Below, in pieces: positions 1,247 to 52,228 of a stretch of DNA of 64,000 nucleotides (positions are counted from its first letter, which is position 1; every line of letters begins with the position of its first letter). The stretch is from Minisyncoccota bacterium (GTDB lineage: Bacteria; Patescibacteriota; Minisyncoccia; Phycocordibacterales; UBA9973). The notes beneath the pieces were generated by a model. The model was not told the DNA's origin. It was given only the letters and a program-made list of their open reading frames with translations, and searched no databases. Location: positions 15,664 through 79,663 of the forward strand of contig JALOQM010000001.1 of assembly GCA_025453495.1 (NCBI GenBank), in the 5' to 3' direction. Made by a program: the position numbers and the translations under genes.

Positions 1247-3058
1247 ATGGAACCAACATTCTACCCTACTGAAGAGACTCTCACCGCTGGAGAGAGAAAA
1301 GTCCTAGAATACGTGGAGCGTATTGAAAATGGAGAAGATCAAAATTTGCTGTTTAAACATTTAGGCATATCTTTCAAAGAAGGTATCGAGAAATTGCTTG
1401 CGGAACGAACAAAAGAGAAAACAAAAAAAGCAGAAGAAAAAAAGGTTGAAGAAATACGCGAAAAATTAAGTGCATCCAAACAGGAGAAGTCTATTGATCT
1501 TTCTGGTATGCCGATACTTCCTTCAAAGTGGTCATTTTTGATAACTGAACCTGAACTTCTTGAAGAAATGTGGACATTTGCCATTCCTGTTGATGAAGAA
1601 GAACACGAAAAACTCAAGGCATGGAAAGCACGTGGAATTGCATATGCAAAAGAGTACGCTAAAAATAACAACGTACTAACACTAGAAGCTACAGAAGGCA
1701 CCAGTGAAGAAATGGGAGACACTGAGGCTCTCCTATCTCCAGAGCGTATTGTTGAAAAAGAAATTATATTACCTGACATTGAACGATTACAAAAGAGTAC
1801 TGCAATCGGTGACTTGAATGGTTCTTACAAAAGCTTTATAGACCATCTCACATACAAAAATCTTATTGCAACTGATCAAAACGGAAATAGTGTATGGACT
1901 GGTGGCAATGAACGTGTTGTGTTTATCGGAGATATTTTGGGAGATAGATCACCTGAAGGAATGAGTATTTACGAAAAAGTACAAGAATTACAAAATCAAG
2001 CAAAGATGCAAGGTGGTGACATAGAATGGATTTCAGGCAATCATGAAAACATGTTCAATGCCGTACTATGCGGTTTTAGCACAGAACAAGGTAAGCCAGT
2101 AGCAGAAGATATGACCTATAGACTCTCAGGGTATGCAGGAAATCTTGAGCTCTTCCAATTGTTACCTTTTGAAAACAAAAAAGAACTATATGCAGATATC
2201 ACAAACAATAGAGAGCAAGTCTTTGGGTTAGAGTTTCAAAAAGATATTCAAAAAAAGAAACGTATTTTAGATACAATTAGAAATAATCCTGAATATCTAC
2301 CAAGTGTAGTAGAAGCATATGAAAGAGCATATGAAGATATGCTAGATAAGCAAAGTAGTTTAGATACGTTTTGTAGATTAGTCGAAAACAACAACTACGA
2401 AGAAGCAAAAAAAATACTGTTTACTTTTATAGATACACTAAGCAAGAAGTACCAAGACCAGATAGGGAATACTATTATTGCAAATAGAAGTGGAATCAAG
2501 GAACATATAAACAACGATCAAAAGCATGCGTTGTTTAAGGAGGCTTTTCTCAATCAAAAACTACTGACACTGCATGATGATAGTTTATACACACACACTA
2601 GTCTCACTCCACGCATGGTAGGCATTATCAAAGAGTTTTCTAAAGATACTTCACTAAAAGAAGGAGTAGAAAAAATAAATACTTTTTATCAAAAAGTATT
2701 ACGTATGTACTTAGAAAATGATAACCCTGAAAGCCTTTTGACTAAACAAGAAATACAATATTTTAATCTACTGCGTGATGAGTTTATTTCCACGTCTTCC
2801 TATTCTAGGGTAAATTTCTCAGAATCGAATTCCATTTCTGATGAAGAAAAAGAAAGTCTCAAGACGTTTTTGAAGGATTCGGGAATCAACATTGTACTAC
2901 ACGGACACACTGACGAAAATGGCGAGCTCAAAGGATTTGCTGATCTTCCTATCGTTTCCATTGATAGAAGTGTATACAAAAATGAAGGAGCAAATATAGA
3001 AAAGACCGTCGCATATGCAAGTATATCGACAGACGGTATCGTGGCATTGCCAAAATAG
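1247..3058 (+). CDS. Large calcineurin-like metallophosphoesterase-domain protein (PPP/ApaH-like motifs)
   Basis: Motifs GDLNG, GDILGDRS and GNHE in the centre, plus a GHTD motif near the C-terminus. Long charged N-terminal and C-terminal regions of unknown function. Confidence 0.55.
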   Translation: MEPTFYPTEETLTAGERKVLEYVERIENGEDQNLLFKHLGISFKEGIEKLLAERTKEKTKKAEEKKVEEIREKLSASKQEKSIDLSGMPILPSKWSFLITEPELLEEMWTFAIPVDEEEHEKLKAWKARGIAYAKEYAKNNNVLTLEATEGTSEEMGDTEALLSPERIVEKEIILPDIERLQKSTAIGDLNGSYKSFIDHLTYKNLIATDQNGNSVWTGGNERVVFIGDILGDRSPEGMSIYEKVQELQNQAKMQGGDIEWISGNHENMFNAVLCGFSTEQGKPVAEDMTYRLSGYAGNLELFQLLPFENKKELYADITNNREQVFGLEFQKDIQKKKRILDTIRNNPEYLPSVVEAYERAYEDMLDKQSSLDTFCRLVENNNYEEAKKILFTFIDTLSKKYQDQIGNTIIANRSGIKEHINNDQKHALFKEAFLNQKLLTLHDDSLYTHTSLTPRMVGIIKEFSKDTSLKEGVEKINTFYQKVLRMYLENDNPESLLTKQEIQYFNLLRDEFISTSSYSRVNFSESNSISDEEKESLKTFLKDSGINIVLHGHTDENGELKGFADLPIVSIDRSVYKNEGANIEKTVAYASISTDGIVALPK

Positions 3059-6077: not shown

Positions 6078-6785
6078 TTAGCAAAGACCAGCCCCAATAG
6101 TTTCAAGCTTTTCCTTAACTCTCTCCCATTTAGGGTACTTTTCATCAAGTAATCGCCAGAACTTTGTATTGTGATTTTTGTATTTCAAATGACAAAGCTC
6201 ATGAATTATTACGTAGTCGATACAATCTTTTGAAGTATGAATTAGTTTAGGATTAAGAAATATTTTGTCTTTGTTGAGAAAACTACCCCAACGTTTCTTC
6301 ATTTCTCGAGTAGCAAGAATAGGAGTATTTTTATATTCAAACTTATTTAACATTTCCTTGAATCTATCTTGAAAAACACTTTCTGTTTTTACTTCAAACC
6401 ATTCATCAACCAGCTTTTTATTGTGGCGACTGTTTGAAACCTCTTTTGTGGTGTAAATAGTTAGAAGTCCTCTTGTTAATGAAACAAGGTCCTCTTTGCC
6501 ACGTCTTACGACCAGCTTATATTGTCTACCAAGATATAAATATCCCTCGCCAGAAATATATTCTTTTTCGTAAATCTTTCGTTGGTACTTTTTGAAAAAT
6601 GAAAGCTGTTTTTCTAACCAGAACCACTTTTTCTGTAAGAAGTTTTCTATTCTTTCATTATCGGTTTGTAGTGGACACTTAAGAATAATACGTAAGTCTG
6701 GAGTGACAGTGAGAGACAGTGTTTTACGATCTTGTTTTATAAGTTGGTATTCATATACAAATGTTCCAAATATGAATTCTTTCAT
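6078..6785 (-). CDS. DUF45/YgjP-like zinc metallohydrolase (WLM/M48-like HExxH)
   Basis: HELCHL motif. This family is often encoded next to type I hsdR genes. Confidence 0.7.
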   Translation of the reverse strand: MKEFIFGTFVYEYQLIKQDRKTLSLTVTPDLRIILKCPLQTDNERIENFLQKKWFWLEKQLSFFKKYQRKIYEKEYISGEGYLYLGRQYKLVVRRGKEDLVSLTRGLLTIYTTKEVSNSRHNKKLVDEWFEVKTESVFQDRFKEMLNKFEYKNTPILATREMKKRWGSFLNKDKIFLNPKLIHTSKDCIDYVIIHELCHLKYKNHNTKFWRLLDEKYPKWERVKEKLETIGAGLC

Positions 6786-6789
6786 AAGA

Positions 6790-9700
6790 TTAAGTGAATA
6801 AATCGAAGTTATTTTCTGCTAACAGCATTACATTATCAATGACAGCTTTGATGTGGTCGTTGTCTATTTCAATACCTTTTTCTCCTTTAACTACATCATA
6901 AAGATAGTCATCAATACTATTTCGCATCTTACGCTTAACGTCCATGTTTTTATACCAATCAACAATAGCCTCATTCTTAATGATTGCGAAAATATCAAGA
7001 ATTATAGAAATATATAATTCTTCACTAAGCTTTAGACTCTCAAACTGAGATCGTAAGTTACGGTAAAAAATATCAGAACCTTTATTTGTCTCAATATTTT
7101 CTGGAAGACTTTCATCCTTCTTGTTCACAACATCGTCACGAATTAACTTCATTTGTTTCAATGCTTCAACATCCGCAAGTTTACCTTGTCGCATCTTTTC
7201 AAGAATTTCTGAAATCTTTTTAGAAAACTTTTCGTAAAACTCAGGGTCAGTATCAAGTTTTTCGGTGATAGTTTTTTGTGTTTGTGCGGCGATAGCCTCA
7301 GCCTTTGATTTATCAGATCCAAGATTTTCAACAGCTTCTTCAAAAAGCTTTCTATCTGTAATGTTTACTTGTTTTGTTAGTAATTCAACCCCGCGAGCAT
7401 CAACATATTTATCAAGAATGTTAATAAGTGACTGCTTGTATTCTAATAGATCGACACGGTCTGCATATTGCAAACTAGCCGCCTTACGAAGCTCAGCAAA
7501 CTTTTTCAACTCACGCTTGTATAAATCAAGGTGTTTAAATTCATGCACGAAGTCTTGCAAGACAAAACACTCACTCAAATTCTTAATAAAAGCATTGAGT
7601 GTTTTGTAGAATGTTTCTCGTTTAGGTTGATCAGCAAGAAACTGTAAGTACACCTCATCATCAGATGATCCTTTTATTTCTTTAAATAAATCATGAACCA
7701 ATGAATAGCTCTGCTCGAGTTCCTGAATCTTATCTGCCACATCGATGAGGGTACCCTTCACATCGTTCTCATCATAGTTACCGAATAGCTTCATCGCTGT
7801 CTTAATATTTTTTGCGTTCTCAGAATAGTCAACAATATACCCTGCTGTCTTCGGTTTCTCTTTTGTATTTTCATAGAGACGATTTACACGAGCAATAGCC
7901 TGGAGTAAATCATGATCATGTAAATCTTTCGCTAAGTACAAGACGGTATTTCTAGGCGCATCGAATCCCGTGAGCAACTTACTCACAACAATAATAATTT
8001 CAACTCCGTCATCGTTATACTTAAAACTATCAACAACATCTTTCTCAAACTTCTCAACACTACTGTAATTTTTCTTTAAGTCCTCGAGATACTTAACAAC
8101 CTCTTTTTTATGTGTATCTTCTTCATCACCATCATCGTGTTCATCAGAAATCACAAGGGCTGTATTTATTTTTCCTGAAGTCTCAAATGCTCTTTGAAAC
8201 AAAACAGCTGAAAACTTTGACGGAGCAACGATTTGCGCTTTCAATCCAGTTCCCTGAAAATTTTCAATGAAATGTTTTTCAATATCAATAGCTATTTCTG
8301 AAATTCGATTTGGGTTATTCTGTATAATCTTTGTTCCAGCGTGCTTTTGTAGTTCCTTCTTTTGTTTATCATTAAGCCCCTCTACGATTCTTTCCATGCG
8401 TCTGTCTACCTGTTCCTGATTTTGAACAAGTTCTACATATCTTCCCTCGTAAATTAATGGGAGGATAACCTTGTCAGCCAAAGCATCATCGATAGTGTAT
8501 CTATCAATTTCCCCTCCAAATTTATTCCAACTTTTATCATTCTTTAAAAGAGGAGTTCCTGTAAATCCAATATAGCAAGCATTCGGTATAACACGGTTCA
8601 TCTCAAGATTAGCTATTCCATACTGCGTTCTGTGGGCTTCATCAATTAAAACAAAAATATTTTTATCTTTGTCTATAACAGAACCTTTTTTCCCGGCAGT
8701 TTGAAATTTTTGGACCAAAGTAGTAATAACTGCGAGTTCCTTATTCTGGATAAGATCAAGTAGATGTTCGCCACTTGTAGCCTGAACAACGTCTTTCTTA
8801 AGGTTACAGTTCTTGAACGTATCCTTGATTTGTTTATCGAGATCTCGACGATCGGTGACAATAATCACTCGAGGGTTGAGAATATGAGGGTCTTCAATAA
8901 GAGCCTTCACAAACATCACCATAGTGAGCGATTTACCAGATCCTTGTGTGTGCCATACGAGTCCACCTTTTCGGCGAGTGATGCCTTGCTCAGTAGTTTC
9001 TTCTTCCTCTATACGCTTGAGCATCTTGTGAATAGCAAAATATTGCTGATAGCGTGAGAGCTTCTTTACTCCTGCATCGAAAAGAATGTAATTCTTGGTG
9101 AGGTCAAGTAACCGCTTTGGTTCAAATAAAGAAAATATACCTCGATCTTGCTCAGTAGGTAATCTGTCTGTTCTTTGCTTATGTCCCTCGGTGTAGCCGT
9201 TGAGATCTTCGAGAATCTGCTTGTATACATCGGCATCAATAGGCTTCTGTATTAGCTTGCCAATCTGTGTATTGAGGTCTTCTTCTTTTGCACCTTTTTC
9301 TTTCCAAACAGCATAGAACTTGTTAGGTGTGCCTGTTGTTCCGTATTGCAAATCTTTTCCATTGGTACCAACGAGAAGCTGGGTATAGGTATAGAGCTTT
9401 GGACAATACTCAGGACCTTGGTTTCGGTTCATCTGGTTGATGGCCTCTTTCACATCAACACCAGACTTTTTGTTCTCAATCACTGCAAAAGGAATGCCGT
9501 TCACAAAACACACAATATCAGGACGGATATTCTGTTTACCACTCGCTACAAATTCAGCAGATACATGGAATGCATTATTCTGTGTGTTCTCGAAGTCAAT
9601 AAACTTGAAGTTCTTTGATATCTTTTTGCCTCCATGGCTTACCTTTATAGTCTTGCCACCACTGGTAGGCATGATGATGTTGTAGATCTTTTGAGCGGTA

Positions 9701-27781: not shown

Positions 27782-27890
27782 TTCTGGCGACTACCTACTT
27801 TCCCCACAAGGAGTATCATCGGCTCTAGAGGTCTTAACTTCTCTGTTCGGAATGTAAAAAGGTGTTGCCCCTCCGACTAATCACCAGAAC
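27782..27890 (-). rRNA. rrf: 5S ribosomal RNA
   Basis: Reverse complement aligns base-for-base with the bacterial 5S consensus (TTCTGGCGACTACC...TCACCAGAA). Confidence 0.85.
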
Positions 27891-28478
27891 AAAATATTCA
27901 ATGGCTAAAGAAAAAACGTACTGCTTCACAACAGTACGCTCGAATATTTGATAAACATTTTCTACAGGGTGAATTTTAATCACAATTTTATTATATTTCG
28001 CTGCATAAGCAGTGAAAATCAAGAAGTCATTGACCTGTTTTGAGAGTTTCCTCTCTATTCCAAGCTTGCTTCTTGTTCGATAAAATCTTTCAATGCTTTT
28101 TGTTATCACTCACATGCCCGTAACAGCAATGGCTATTACGATAGCACGTGGTAAGCACATCCCTTTTCAGAAATTTCTTTCTAAATTGGTCTCTAGTAGT
28201 TAGTTCATCTTATATCTAAGCACATTATTTCAAGTAATTATTGTATTGTCAAGTGGTGATTTCCAAATTTCCTAATAGGAATCGGATAATTAGTACTTCT
28301 CGGCTCCACACATTACTGCGTTTCCACCTAAAGCCTATCAACGTAATCATCTCTTACGATCCTCAAACGATTCCTAATCTTGAAGCTGGCTTCCTTCTTA
28401 GATGCTTTCAGAAGTTATCCATTCCGAACATAGCTACCGGACAGTGCCGTTGGCACGACAGCCCGCACACCAGAGGTT

Positions 28479-28510
<32 letters not shown>

Positions 28511-28562
28511 CCCTTCTCAAGAATCAACGCCTGCAGTAGATAGGAGACCAACCTGTCTCACG

Positions 28563-29094
28563 CATCTATGTTTTACATCCATCATCCTGCGTTACGGGAT
28601 AACAGATCCTTCATTACTGAAGGGATCGGACTGTAACTTATTCATTGATTCACGAATTATGATTTATGATTCAAGAACGCACACATTCAGTCTCTACGGG
28701 TACTATTCGTACTGGAAAGTGGAGTCAATAAGTTTTCACTAATTGACTCACAGTGGACTTTGCATGAAGCCAGTTTAAGATTCATAACAATCCAAGCCTG
28801 GTCACCCAAGCGTATCTGGCACTGCCATTGGTGGTATATTAAACCCCGACAGTATTGATTCCACTTTCCAATACAAATAATTTCCCTCGGTATTGTCCTC
28901 TGATTACTCAGTTCGGATTTTACCGATATACGTGTACTTCACATCACATATCACTATATGATGCCGCCGTGCGTGCGCATACCGCGCACCATGGTCTTAA
29001 TCTCAGATTAAAACATCCTGAAAAAGAATTTCTTCCCTTCAGGTTCCTCAACGGGTTCAAACTGTTAAACCCACAAGGTCATTCTTATGACCTT
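28563..29094 (-). mobile_element. Putative ORF-less group I self-splicing intron inside the 23S rRNA gene
   Basis: About 532 nt interrupt the universally contiguous 23S sequence GGGTT(C)AAACCGT | CGTGAGACAG (E. coli ~2590s; the I-CreI-type homing site). The insertion ends in G before exon 2, the upstream exon ends in T, and no ORF of 60 aa or more lies on the rRNA strand. Confidence 0.55.
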
Positions 29095-29410
29095 AACGGT
29101 TTGAACCCAGCTCGCGTAACTTTTTAATTGGCGAACAGCCAAACCCTTGGCACCTTCTCCAGCGCCAGGATAAGTTGAGCCGACATCGAGGTGCCGAACT
29201 CCGCCGTCGATATGAACTCTTAGGCGGAACTAGCCTGTTATCCCTAGAGTAGCTTCTATCCCTTAATCTTCGGCCGCGTCTAAAGCGGACCATCGGTTCA
29301 CTTGGTTCTGCTTTCGCACCTGCTTGGCATGTACGCCTCACAGTCAAGCCAGCTTGTGCCCATACACTATCGGCACGGTTTCCATTCGCGCCTAGCTGAC
29401 CTTAATAAAG

Positions 29411-29451
<41 letters not shown>

Positions 29452-29742
29452 ACCCACCAGATACTGTCCCTTTGCGTTTTTGCCGCAAGGGTTAGAACAT
29501 GCCACGAGAAAGAATGGTATTTCACTGACGACTCCATATCAACCAAGATCGATACTTCAAAGTCTCCCATCTATGCTACGCAGTCACGCAACATGCTCAA
29601 TATCAAGCTATAGTAAAGCTTCTAGGGTCTTTTCGTCTAACTGCAGGTAATCGGCATCTTCACCGATATTGTATTTTCACCGAGCAAGTCCCCGAGACAG
29701 TTGTCCAGTCATTACGCCATTCGTGCGCGTCAGAACTTACCT

Positions 29743-29793
<51 letters not shown>

Positions 29794-30499
29794 CAGGGCT
29801 TATATCAGTCAGCTTGAGATAATCTCACCGCCGATATTTGACCTTCTGGCATTGGTCAGGCGTCACCCCCTATACATCCTCTTGCGAGTTCGCAGGGAGC
29901 TGTGTTTTTGATAAACAGTTGCCAGACATACTTTCGCTGCGCCCCATGAAATTAATCATGGGGAAGCCTTATTCCGAAGTTACGGCTGCTTTTTTGCCGA
30001 GTTCCTTGGGGACCTCTCACTCGTTCGCCTTGGTCTACTCGACCTGACTACCTGTGTCGGTTTACGGTACGGTTCCTGCGACGTTATACTTAGAGAATTT
30101 TCTCGGAAGCGTGCTTTGTGAAATCTATCCCGGCGAACCGGAACATTTCCGCTGTGTTTGGAGACTGCTATCTAAAGCAGATGCAGGGATTTTCCTCCGC
30201 ATCGGTCCTCACACCACGAACCCAAATCCAATAATGGGCTCCACATACAACCCTTCGTCCTCCCATCGTACGTCGCAGAAGTCACGGAATATTAACCGTG
30301 TGTCCATCGCGTGCGGCTTTCGCCATCCGCTTAGGCCCGACTAACCCTTGGCTGATTGACATTACCAAGGAAACCTTAGTCTTTCGGCGTGCGGGGATTT
30401 CACCCGCATTGCGGTTACTTGTGCCAACATTCTTACTTCCACACGCTCCAGATTGGCTCACGCCTTGTCCTTCACAGCAGAGTGGAATACTCTCCTACC

Positions 30500-30758
30500 G
30501 CTTGCAAACTTCACAGAGGAAGTGAGCGACGTACGAATGTCGCTCACATTTTTTTCTAAATACACACCGTTGGTACGATGCGTAGAACCAATTTGGCACT
30601 CTCACGTTAAACGTGAATCAGAAAAATTCGTGGGGAGAGCCGGATTCGAACCGGCACGGACGTTAGTCCATCAGATTGAAGTCTGACGAGTCTGCCAATT
30701 CCTCCATCCCCCTCAAGAATAAAATAAAAAGAACAATTCCTCTGTGAAGTTTGCAAGC
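30500..30758 (-). repeat. 23S rRNA intervening-sequence (IVS)-like insertion with a perfect 22-bp inverted-repeat stem and 215-nt loop
   Basis: gcttgcaaacttcacagaggaa (30500-30521) is the exact reverse complement of ttcctctgtgaagtttgcaagc (30737-30758). The loop contains extra hairpins and a tRNA-like T-arm (GCCGG-TTCGAAT-CCGGC). The site matches the helix-45 region where IVSs occur in other bacteria. Confidence 0.6.
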
Positions 30759-30834
30759 CCTCAAATTCGGTACTACGCTTAGCCCCGATTATTTTCGGCG
30801 CAGAGATTCTCGATGAGTGAGCTGTTACGCTTTC

Positions 30835-30866
<32 letters not shown>

Positions 30867-31539
30867 TCATTGTTTAAGAACCTCTACATCCTTGTTTTGC
30901 ACTCAGCGTAGATTTAGGGACCTTATTTAGAGATCTGGGCTGTTTCCCTTTTGACTGATGGAGCTTCGCCCCCATAGTCTAACTGCTACGTTGTAACTCT
31001 TGGTATTCGGAGTTTGATAGGTGTCGCGAGATTGCTCCCTGTCGAAACCTTCCAGTGCTCTACCCCCAAGAGGATCACGTAACGCTAGCCCTAAAGCTAT
31101 TTCGGAGAGAACCAGCTATTACCAGGTTCGATTAGCTTTTCACTCCATACCACAGGTCATCCGAAGACGTTGTACGATCTACCGGTTCGGGCCTCCCCCC
31201 GACCTTCGTCGGGGTTCACCCTGCCCATGGCAAGCTCACCTGGCTTCGGGTCTTATGTGTGCTACCAATTACGCGCTATTAACACTTGGTTTCCCTGGGA
31301 CTCCCCCCGCCTCACTTTTCGAAGTCTCTTGTCTTTCGTTTTACAACAAACATGAGACCTCACATTTTTGATGCTCCTTGTATTTCAAGGAGTTTCAAAA
31401 AGTGGGGCGGGGTTAGCCGAGCAACACACATAAACTCGTTGGCTCATTCTTCAATAGGCACGCCGTGACGGTAGCAAGCTACCGCTCCGACTCCTTGTAA
31501 GCATACAGTTTCAGGTCTATTTCACCGCCCTTATCGGGC

Positions 31540-31581
<42 letters not shown>

Positions 31582-32282
31582 TTTAAGAGTATTTAGCCTT
31601 GCCGGTTAGTGCCGGCAGATTCCTCCAAGCTATTCGTGTCTTGAAGTACTCAAGAACAGTGACAAAGAAGATATGTTATTTTCGTCTACAGGGCCATCAC
31701 CTTCTGCGGCGTTGCTTTCCAGCAACTTCAACTAACAACATATTTTTTGACTTCTCTAGTAAACTACATCACTGCCTTACAACCCCGACATCCGAAGACA
31801 TCGGTTTGGGCTGTTTCCTTTTCGCTCGCCGCTACTTAGGAAATGTCGATCTTACGATCATTGTTTTCTGTTCCTCCTGGTACTGAGATGTTTCACTTCC
31901 CAGGGTGCGCTCCCGCGTGCGTTCGCACGAAGGCTCTCGAGGGTTGCTCGAGAAGGTTTCCCCATTCGGACATCTTCGGGTCAAAGGTTGCTAGGCACCT
32001 CACCGAAGCTTATCGCAGCCACGCCACGTCCTTCATCGCCTCTTAAAGCCAAGGCATCCACCGTATGCTCTTAATTTCCTATTAGGAAATTTAAAAATCA
32101 CACTTGCACTCCGACACAAGGTCGGAGTTTGTTTTCTTCACGATGCGACCGCTCGCCCCATGAAGAAAACGACTTGCTATACAATTCTTACCTACCTGTC
32201 TCAACACGGCTCAAAGACCCAGAAAGTCTGGTGTGTTGGACAGAATGCAATTATCAATCAGCTGTCTTCCGGTCAATTGTCT

Positions 32283-51984: not shown

Positions 51985-52152
51985 ATGTTTGCAAGGAGCA
52001 CTTTACTATGCCCTGCCTAAAAATGCAAGGGTTTCTGAGAAAATTGATAAAAATGAGCTTCTCTTATATAGTGAGAAGGTTCGGGTCAGTTGCATCCCTA
52101 AACCAAAAGCAGTACTTTTAGTCGGGCGAATAAATTTGAAAATTGTTTTAGC

Positions 52153-52228
52153 CACCCTTAGCTCAGTTGGTAGAGCAGTCGTCTTATACACGACCGGTCC
52201 ATGGTTCGAGTCCATGAGGGTGGACCAG
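52153..52228 (+). tRNA. tRNA with anticodon UAU (Ile2-type by anticodon; identity not otherwise established); C1:G72, CCA encoded
   Basis: Canonical 76-nt numbering: acceptor CCACCCT/AGGGTGG, T8, A14, G18G19, anticodon stem GTCGT/ACGAC with loop CTTATAC, T-arm CCATGG-TTCGAGT, A73-CCA. The D-arm is identical to tRNA-Lys-type sequences. Confidence 0.75.

Follow-up and report, generated by a model that had tools for sequence, protein, structure and literature searches.

What interrupts the 23S rRNA gene of this Minisyncoccota bacterium, and is the interruption removed from the transcript by splicing? The window, that is the whole stretch of 64,000 nucleotides (64 kb) analysed here (contig JALOQM010000001.1, positions 15,664 to 79,663), contains one bacterial large-subunit (LSU) rRNA gene according to Rfam, at 28271-32084 on the minus strand, with a length of 3814 nucleotides (nt) against a model of 2925 positions. 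The gene is broken by a 533-nt insertion after the equivalent of Escherichia coli U2593 (site L2593). This insertion is very probably a group I intron without an open reading frame (ORF), carried by a host of the Patescibacteria [candidate phyla radiation (CPR)] and predicted to leave the transcript by guanosine-initiated splicing. The gene, the insertion and the exon segments adjoining it are as follows.

28271-32084, minus strand: 23S rRNA gene, host of the insertion (Rfam LSU_rRNA_bacteria, 2372.9 bits, model positions 1-2925)
29096-29108, minus strand: 5' exon, positions -13 to -1 (GGGUUCAAACCGU, 23S 2581-2593; E. coli alignment, pairing counts, helix check)
28563-29095, minus strand: probable group I intron, 533 nt, after U2593 (gap-free exon junction, match to the family model, helix check)
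28559-28562, minus strand: 3' exon, positions +1 to +4 (CGUG), pairs with CACG of the guide as P10 (family alignment, helix check)

On the minus strand the gene reads ...GAGCUGGGUUCAAACCGU, then the 533 nt, then CGUGAGACAGGUUGGUC.... Removal of 28563-29095 joins window position 29096 to 28562 (minus strand, ...GGGUUCAAACCGU/CGUGAGACAGGUUGG...), and the joined exons align gap-free to E. coli 2580-2610, placing the break in helix 93. An earlier note, made from the sequence alone, had described an insertion of about 532 nt at 28563-29094. The insertion stands, but its 5' limit has to be moved to 29095, and the split 23S stretch, quoted there as ending in AAACGT, is in fact GGGTTCAAACCGT in the local exon. 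The gap-free junction agrees with the L2593 position assigned in that note, and both bases of its splice-site rule are read in the sequence, U as the last base of the 5' exon and G as that of the insertion. Intron positions are numbered below such that nt n is window position 29096-n; the terminal base is thus G533 (ωG), which is positioned by the P9.0 pairing. The insertion folds at -189.7 kcal/mol (z = -9.3 versus shuffled sequences) and, as insertions are also common at the same site in other genomes, it is not a chance feature.

Genomes (one per species) were scanned with a query consisting of ωG followed by the 3' exon (G + CGTGAGACAGKTYGG; CGTGAGACAG...), which gave at least 120 loci. 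Among the 120 matches listed, about 75 have an insertion at exactly L2593. Most of these are Patescibacteria (Saccharibacteria, Paceibacterota, Nomurabacteria, Kaiserbacteria and others), and Acidimicrobiaceae form a separate group; more than 30 of the CPR introns are similar to the window intron in nt 125-220 and 395-490 (nhmmer, blastn). More than 50 homologous introns occupy this site in CPR genomes. Scanning metagenomes for the 3' tail plus exon added 34 loci, of which 33 resemble the window intron; the full intron is readable in 32, two loci lack the 5' exon and one of those two is the locus that gave no match. The closest metagenome relatives have about 73% identity over intron nt 1-215; they measure 338-422 nt, and the P6 extension described below is absent from them. 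Many family members, with introns of 246-350 nt, have no ORF at all. The host was compared through the flanking 23S 3' domain alone, which among the matches listed is closest to Ca. Paceibacterota (L036, 88% identity) and Ca. Nomurabacteria (L119, 87%), in keeping with the CPR-like genome suspected in the earlier note. The best matches are mostly CPR metagenome-assembled genomes (MAGs), and a few are titled only 'bacterium'.

The splice sites of the window intron would be defined by an internal guide directly 5' of P2.

28964-28971, minus strand: internal guide CACGGCGG, nt 125-132 (invariant in the family, helix check)

The 8-nt guide is invariant across the family. Its GCGG (nt 129-132) pairs with CCGU of the 5' exon (-4 to -1), giving a P1 of 4 base pairs (bp) with a G129•U-1 wobble, and its CACG pairs with the 3' exon CGUG to form P10, adjoining P1. 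Since exons and guide are both invariant, no covariation for P1 or P10 is visible inside the family. A sister subfamily (L013, L014, L047 and L064) has the host exon AACGU and the guide GCGUU, so that C-4:G is replaced by A-4:U and the G•U wobble is kept. Some relatives with a short P1 loop (L107, L072, L083, L019, L051 and L095) have the guide at nt 29-37, which identifies the 124 nt upstream of the guide in the window copy as an insertion in the P1 loop (L1).

The ribozyme core follows the guide, with helices denoted P and joining segments J.

28942-28963, minus strand: P2, 9 bp, GUGA (GNRA) tetraloop (family covariation, helix check)
28932-28937, minus strand: P3 5' strand GUACAC (all six P3 pairs covary, pairs checked)
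28887-28926, minus strand: P4 UCGGUA/UACCGA, J4/5 AAA, P5 UCC/GGA, P5a with GUAA loop, J5/4 CAA (family, model R1, helix check)
28698-28886, minus strand: P6 GGG/CCC enclosing a branched extension of 183 nt at 28701-28883 (R1 alignment, ORFs of relatives)
28689-28694, minus strand: P7 5' strand GAGACU with bulged A403, after J6/7 GUA (invariant block GUAGAGACU, change in L090)
28679-28684, minus strand: P3 3' strand GUGUGC, which crosses P7 in the group I pseudoknot (family covariation, helix check)
28640-28678, minus strand: P8 hairpin (family covariation, R1 match)
28628-28639, minus strand: J8/7 AAGUUAC and P7 3' strand AGUCC (Rfam and family consensus AAGnUAYAGUCC)
28608-28627, minus strand: J7/9 GAUC, of which AUC is the P9.0 5' strand, and P9, 6 bp, GUAA tetraloop (covariation, helix check)
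28563-28607, minus strand: 3' tail with a P9.1-like hairpin; GAU at 28564-28566 is the P9.0 partner and 28563 is ωG (P9.0 covariation)

The structure was derived from an alignment of 25 ORF-less relatives, from guide to 3' exon, with the window sequence excluded. RNAalifold recovers P10, P2, P3, P4, P5, P6, P8 and P9 from this alignment, and P7 was added to the consensus as a pseudoknot before pairs were counted. Standard pairs occupy 94.0% of the cells, compared with 36-40% when the partners are slid; both sides have changed in 234 cells, compared with 44-60, and none of 500 shuffles matched the observed values. Compensatory changes occur at 32 of the 48 pairs. They fall in P2, P3, P5, P6, P8 and P9, and the P3/P7 pseudoknot is supported by covariation as well; P4, P7 and P10 are almost invariant, P7 contributing a single exchange of U:A to G:C in L090. 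P9.0, made of three J7/9 bases and the three bases before ωG, is 88% paired and all three of its pairs show double changes (AUC:GAU, AUG:CAU, UUC:GAA and UUG:CAA). The 3' tail is common to the window intron, L007 and 33 metagenome loci.

When the window copy is checked pair by pair, as the earlier note had proposed for P1-P9, every core helix is formed. The core is compact, with a short P5, no P7.1/P7.2, GNRA loops capping P2 (GUGA) and P9 (GUAA) and a J7/3 of four nt (GAAU, nt 408-411). The blocks GUAGAGACU and AAGUUACAGUCC are present in the window copy, invariant in the family and aligned to the Rfam consensus; judging by sequence, a G-binding P7 with its bulged A and the conserved J6/7 and J8/7 would be functional.

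The Rfam group I model (RF00028, Intron_gpI), the scan suggested at the outset, does match 28607-28967 (minus strand), with 23.4 bits (E = 1e-3), below its gathering score of 50. The alignment spans the whole model, with J6/7-P7 (GUAGAGACU), P3', P8, J8/7-P7' (AAGUUACAGUCC) and P9 at high posterior probability and a 153-nt insert in P6. The same model finds no group I match at E <= 1 in L035, a clear member of the family. The Rfam threshold therefore cannot decide for the L2593 family, and the shortfall measures the reach of the model, not the nature of the RNA. We built a second covariance model, R1, covering P3-P9, from 16 relatives without the window sequence. R1 has a single match in the 64 kb, at 28608-28940 (minus strand), full length, with 85.2 bits (E = 3.7e-16) and a 171-nt insert in L6. 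ORF-less members outside the training set score about 80-95 bits if they have an insertion inside the match, and compact members up to 125 bits. Family covariation, the R1 match and the pairing of the guide with both exons together support the group I reading.

Two side observations concern the reach of this family. In L142, a metagenome 23S locus, R1 matches twice, at 6316-6465 and 7603-7766 (plus strand, 115 and 119 bits, about 1.3 kb apart), which places one ribozyme lineage at two sites of one gene. Outside the CPR, L2593 insertions of 355-739 nt occur in Actinomycetota/Acidimicrobiaceae MAGs (L029, L038, L042, L049, L052, L060, L077 and L091); some bear LAGLIDADG ORFs, the guide and core motifs of the CPR family are absent and R1 scores are weak (34-48 bits).

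The L1 insertion holds a second element that pairs with the 5' exon, and it is divided as follows.

29074-29095, minus strand: hairpin A, nt 1-22, starts at the splice site [minimum-free-energy (MFE) fold, covarying pairs in the closest subfamily]
29053-29065, minus strand: ACA and a' (GUUUGAACCC), nt 31-43 (10 of 10 pairs, family pairing counts, covariation at -6 and -8)
28972-29052, minus strand: remainder of the L1 insertion, nt 44-124 (aligned to 13 relatives from metagenomes)

The segment a' (nt 34-43, GUUUGAACCC) is perfectly complementary to exon positions -13 to -4 (GGGUUCAAAC, 23S 2581-2590), which are residues of the peptidyl-transferase loop. The remainder (nt 44-124) consists of a variable hairpin B, a conserved UUAAUCUGAGAUUAA element and a covarying hairpin D (GUGCGC...GCGCAC). 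In the relatives, a' was taken to be the best 10-mer on the 5' side of the guide, and shuffled sequences served as the control; an attempt to locate it from invariant exon positions only was too noisy in the AT-rich sequence and chose other segments. At least nine of ten pairs form in 47 of the 55 guide-bearing members (8% of shuffles), and all ten in 29 (0.4% of shuffles). The base opposite exon -6 follows the host: it is U in 15/15 hosts with A, whereas hosts with G have C in 30 cases and U in two (Fisher p = 1.8e-10, ignoring phylogeny). At -8 the pairs C:G, U:A and A:U are all seen. The preceding ACA was not used to locate a', and in the window copy its A and C lie opposite U-1 and G-2. 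Over 30 distinct rows G-2 faces C or U in all 30 and U-1 faces A in 20, G in four and another base in six; C-3 is mostly mismatched. RNAalifold, applied to the window copy and 13 metagenome relatives, yields one continuous hairpin that runs from exon -12 across the splice site into hairpin A; this duplex measures about 22 bp, and its intron side carries compensatory changes. In the relatives hairpin A stacks on the exon:a' helix.

The exon:a' helix overlaps P1 at -1, -2 and -4. It was considered as P1 itself and rejected, since it would place a U-A pair at the splice site. That it is not P1 follows from CACGGCGG, which provides both the G•U wobble and P10, from the relatives with a short L1 and from the match of GCGUU to the exon AACGU. 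We tentatively suggest that the 5' exon is recognized in two parts, a 4-bp P1 and an exon:a' helix of 10-13 bp (23S 2581-2590), the latter acting as a built-in clamp or conformational switch. It is possible, at a similar level of doubt, that introns of the closest subfamily have to remodel their duplex of about 22 bp over G-2 and U-1 before catalysis. A helix of this kind, burying the 5' splice site, may be undescribed; no mention of it was found in the part consulted of the CPR survey discussed below (PMC11270868).

UUGUGGGUUUA, which forms the 3' strand of hairpin A (nt 19-29, 29067-29077, minus strand), resembles the exon sequence GGGUUCAA in the window copy alone. It can pair with a', and this pairing is the one drawn in the MFE fold; UUGUGGGUUUA could serve as an internal decoy for a' after the exons leave.

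The predicted mechanism is the standard two-step transesterification initiated by guanosine. With the guide GCGG (nt 129-132) paired to exon CCGU, U-1 would form the G•U wobble in P1; next to it, CACG would hold 3' exon positions +1 to +4 as P10. The 3' splice site would be docked at the G-binding pair of P7 by P9.0 (AUC/GAU) together with G533, and helix 93 beside the peptidyl-transferase centre would be restored once the exons are ligated (GGGUUCAAACCGU/CGUGAGACAG). Transcription reaches a' about 90 nt ahead of the guide, so that a' would catch the 5' exon co-transcriptionally. It may then either remain as a helix branching from the 4-bp P1 or open partly at -1, -2 and -4; exon:a' and P1 might alternate, or some three pairs might open to leave a three-way junction of P1, a' and hairpin A.

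The longest ORFs inside the insertion on the RNA strand are 40 and 38 amino acids (aa) long, in agreement with the claim that no ORF of 60 aa or more is present. A mechanically called 90-aa ORF with a TTG start lies on the opposite strand, at 28855-29127, and Pfam has no match for it. Relatives of 700-770 nt have an ORF encoding a single-motif LAGLIDADG protein (...AGFLDGDGS...) between P4/P6 and P6'/P7, i.e. in the P6 loop. No homing-endonuclease gene was found in the window intron by ORF analysis, tblastn or Pfam, a search confined to the intron, LAGLIDADG genes elsewhere in the window not having been looked for. The 183 nt that the window copy has in P6 (28701-28883) fold into a long, imperfectly paired stem from which four small branches emerge, are unique to this copy and show no similarity to the 120 listed genome loci, the introns of the metagenome loci or the rest of the window. 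They were considered as an endonuclease remnant, using as tblastn queries 43 ORFs of at least 90 aa from the introns of relatives, LAGLIDADG proteins among them; this was rejected, the matches being confined to bases of the RNA core through which the relatives' ORFs read. A repeat or mobile element, in P6 or in L1, was likewise rejected, with no second copy in the window or the 120 listed genome loci. Loss of an endonuclease gene followed by remodelling of P6 is a plausible history.

The intron could be a true group I intron that nonetheless depends on protein, either a host factor or a trans-acting maturase, its own endonuclease/maturase gene having been lost. The LAGLIDADG proteins encoded in P6 of relatives are of a kind that can have maturase activity (as stated in the part consulted of PMC11270868), and the 4-bp P1 is short, with the splice site sequestered. 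On the other hand, the many family introns of 246-350 nt without an ORF make a need for an intron-encoded maturase unlikely, and the GNRA-capped P2 and P9 suggest a self-sufficient fold. We consider protein dependence unlikely on balance.

Several points weigh against an active group I intron as such. The Rfam gathering score is missed (23.4 versus 50 bits), P1 and P10 rest on complementarity and one class of compensatory change in the sister subfamily, and the covariation statistics ignore phylogeny. The exon:a'/hairpin A duplex, competing with P1 at -1, -2 and -4, could in principle inhibit the first step. Structure, homology and site are read from the sequences compared, and from them we infer splicing in vivo. 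A 23S group I intron of Simkania is reported as unspliced (by a title cited in PMC11270868, of which part was consulted), a precedent for an insertion derived from a group I intron that no longer splices and is either retained in the mature 23S rRNA or marks the gene as a pseudogene. The sub-threshold Rfam score, the unusual loads of 183 nt in P6 and 124 nt in L1 and the burial of the 5' splice site in a long hairpin would suit such a relic. Against it, the core helices, guide, P9.0 and ωG are all intact, and the R1 score is within the range of relatives bearing a comparable insertion. A 533-nt insert in helix 93 by the peptidyl-transferase loop would be hard to tolerate, and the gene is the sole 23S gene in the window, directly followed by the 5S gene (27782-27888, Rfam). 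The exon:a' pairing also tracks the host exon, which implies ongoing selection. Loss of splicing is therefore improbable. An intervening sequence (IVS) cut out by RNase III without religation, leaving a fragmented 23S rRNA, deserves hardly any credence: the helix-45 insertion of the same gene is IVS-like, closed by a 21-bp stem, and the duplex of exon:a' and hairpin A, at about 22 bp, has the length to look like an RNase III substrate, but no stem joins the ends of the insertion in the MFE fold, position 2593 in helix 93 is not among the known 23S IVS sites (helices 25 and 45, according to the part consulted of PMC11270868), a conserved, covarying group I core has no role in an IVS, and cutting the exon:a' duplex would remove residues of the peptidyl-transferase centre.

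The same 23S gene and its surroundings show further peculiarities. Helix 45 is replaced by an insertion of about 237 nt, within 30501-30758 (minus strand), which has both the site and the terminal stem that define an RNase III-type IVS. The insertion contains a tRNA-like element at 30631-30713 (minus strand; Rfam tRNA, 40.8 bits in a local search, threshold 29), which ARAGORN reports as a tRNA whose anticodon has 2 nt, in a loop of 6 nt (CUUCAA); the variable arm is long and the T loop canonical. A perfect 21-bp inverted repeat (CUUGCAAACUUCACAGAGGAA / UUCCUCUGUGAAGUUUGCAAG) flanks the element and resembles the stem of an RNase III-type IVS. ARAGORN called no comparable element in 40 related loci, where calls were not mapped to 23S and many loci may stop short of helix 45. 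A second case of a tRNA-like sequence inside an rRNA insertion is found in a Saccharibacteria MAG (L015), where ARAGORN places a tRNA-Leu(UAG) at 1882-1960 (minus strand), inside a 1034-nt L2593 intron (1506-2539). Relative to E. coli, the window 23S gene has two other insertions, of 51 nt after position ~272 (31754-31804, minus strand) and of 99 nt after position ~611 (31312-31410, minus strand); R1 matches neither and has no second match in the 64 kb. The Rfam scan found no 16S gene in the window, so that the 23S-5S pair is unlinked from a 16S gene within the 64 kb. ARAGORN also identifies a tRNA-Ile with anticodon UAU at 52152-52227 (plus strand), an uncommon bacterial route to reading AUA.

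With the group I intron as the preferred reading, the comparison with known introns begins at the insertion site. The Chlamydomonas chloroplast LSU intron, the source of I-CreI, occupies the same L2593 site. Cyanobacterial L2593 introns (Synechococcus C9, S. lividus C1 and Thermosynechococcus elongatus) are about 745 nt long, with a P7.1/P7.2 extension of about 65 nt and a short P2 (Haugen et al., 2007, PMC1995217). They share with the window intron the site after U2593 and the same conserved 23S target. A LAGLIDADG endonuclease is encoded in the cyanobacterial and chloroplast introns and in relatives of the window intron, whereas the window intron itself has no ORF. It also differs from the cyanobacterial introns in having a 9-bp, GNRA-capped P2, no P7.1/P7.2 and only 4 nt between P7 and P3', and the last of these identifies it as a different ribozyme lineage at a shared site. 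The I-CreI-type homing site named in the earlier note is correct as to site; the window intron does not belong to the chloroplast/cyanobacterial ribozyme lineage of I-CreI-type L2593 introns, which have P7.1/P7.2.

Compact IC3-type introns of bacterial tRNA genes, such as those of Azoarcus tRNA-Ile and cyanobacterial tRNA-Leu, dominate the RF00028 consensus. We take the window core to resemble IC3, with its short P5, absence of P7.1/P7.2, GNRA loops on P2 and P9, GUAGAGACU and AAGnUAYAGUCC, and the RF00028 alignment of the window intron runs from P2 to P9. In contrast to the IC3 tRNA introns, the window intron lies in rRNA and has a 124-nt exon-binding insertion in L1 and a large extension in P6. 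The exon:a' helix recalls an alternative 5'-exon hairpin, P(-1), which Woodson and Cech reportedly described for the Tetrahymena pre-rRNA intron in the early 1990s. In both, a helix of the 5' exon competes with P1 and can modulate the first splicing step in an rRNA context; P(-1) presumably lies within the exon, whereas here the partner is a segment of the intron in the P1 loop. Unlike P(-1), the exon:a' helix covaries with the exon, has 10-13 bp and extends past the splice site to join a hairpin of the intron.

Group I introns at position 2593 of CPR 23S genes go back to an observation by Brown et al. (2015), according to a survey by Tsurumaki et al. (2024, J Bacteriol, PMC11270868); what follows on the survey refers to the part of it that was consulted. 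The survey lists 2593 as one of the CPR 23S positions where group I introns and LAGLIDADG_1 proteins occur. Its count of group I introns lacking an ORF in CPR 23S genes is 222. Versions with and without an ORF at a given site are highly similar once the ORF is set aside, and at 2593 the two are interspersed (PMC11270868). ORF-less CPR 23S group I introns, position 2593 included, are thus already published, and the window intron is one more copy, sharing host group, site and ribozyme family (R1) with the surveyed L2593 introns. The survey classifies introns by Rfam, and no structure was found given in the consulted part; the window copy lies below the Rfam threshold. To the surveyed introns it adds the unique 183-nt P6 extension and the exon:a' helix.

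For the organism, the mature 23S rRNA is expected to be 533 nt shorter at L2593 than the gene. As the Rfam group I model misses the whole family, rRNA pipelines will mis-size or reject such genes. The mobile-intron family spread across the Patescibacteria gains a further ORF-less copy in the window intron, and the site used by I-CreI-type introns is seen to harbour a different, compact ribozyme lineage in the CPR. If the exon:a' helix does act as an exon clamp or switch, it would couple splicing to the transcription and folding of the rRNA or favour site-specific reverse splicing, and it would provide a simple natural model for the securing of an exon, within a folding rRNA, by a ribozyme whose guide is very short.

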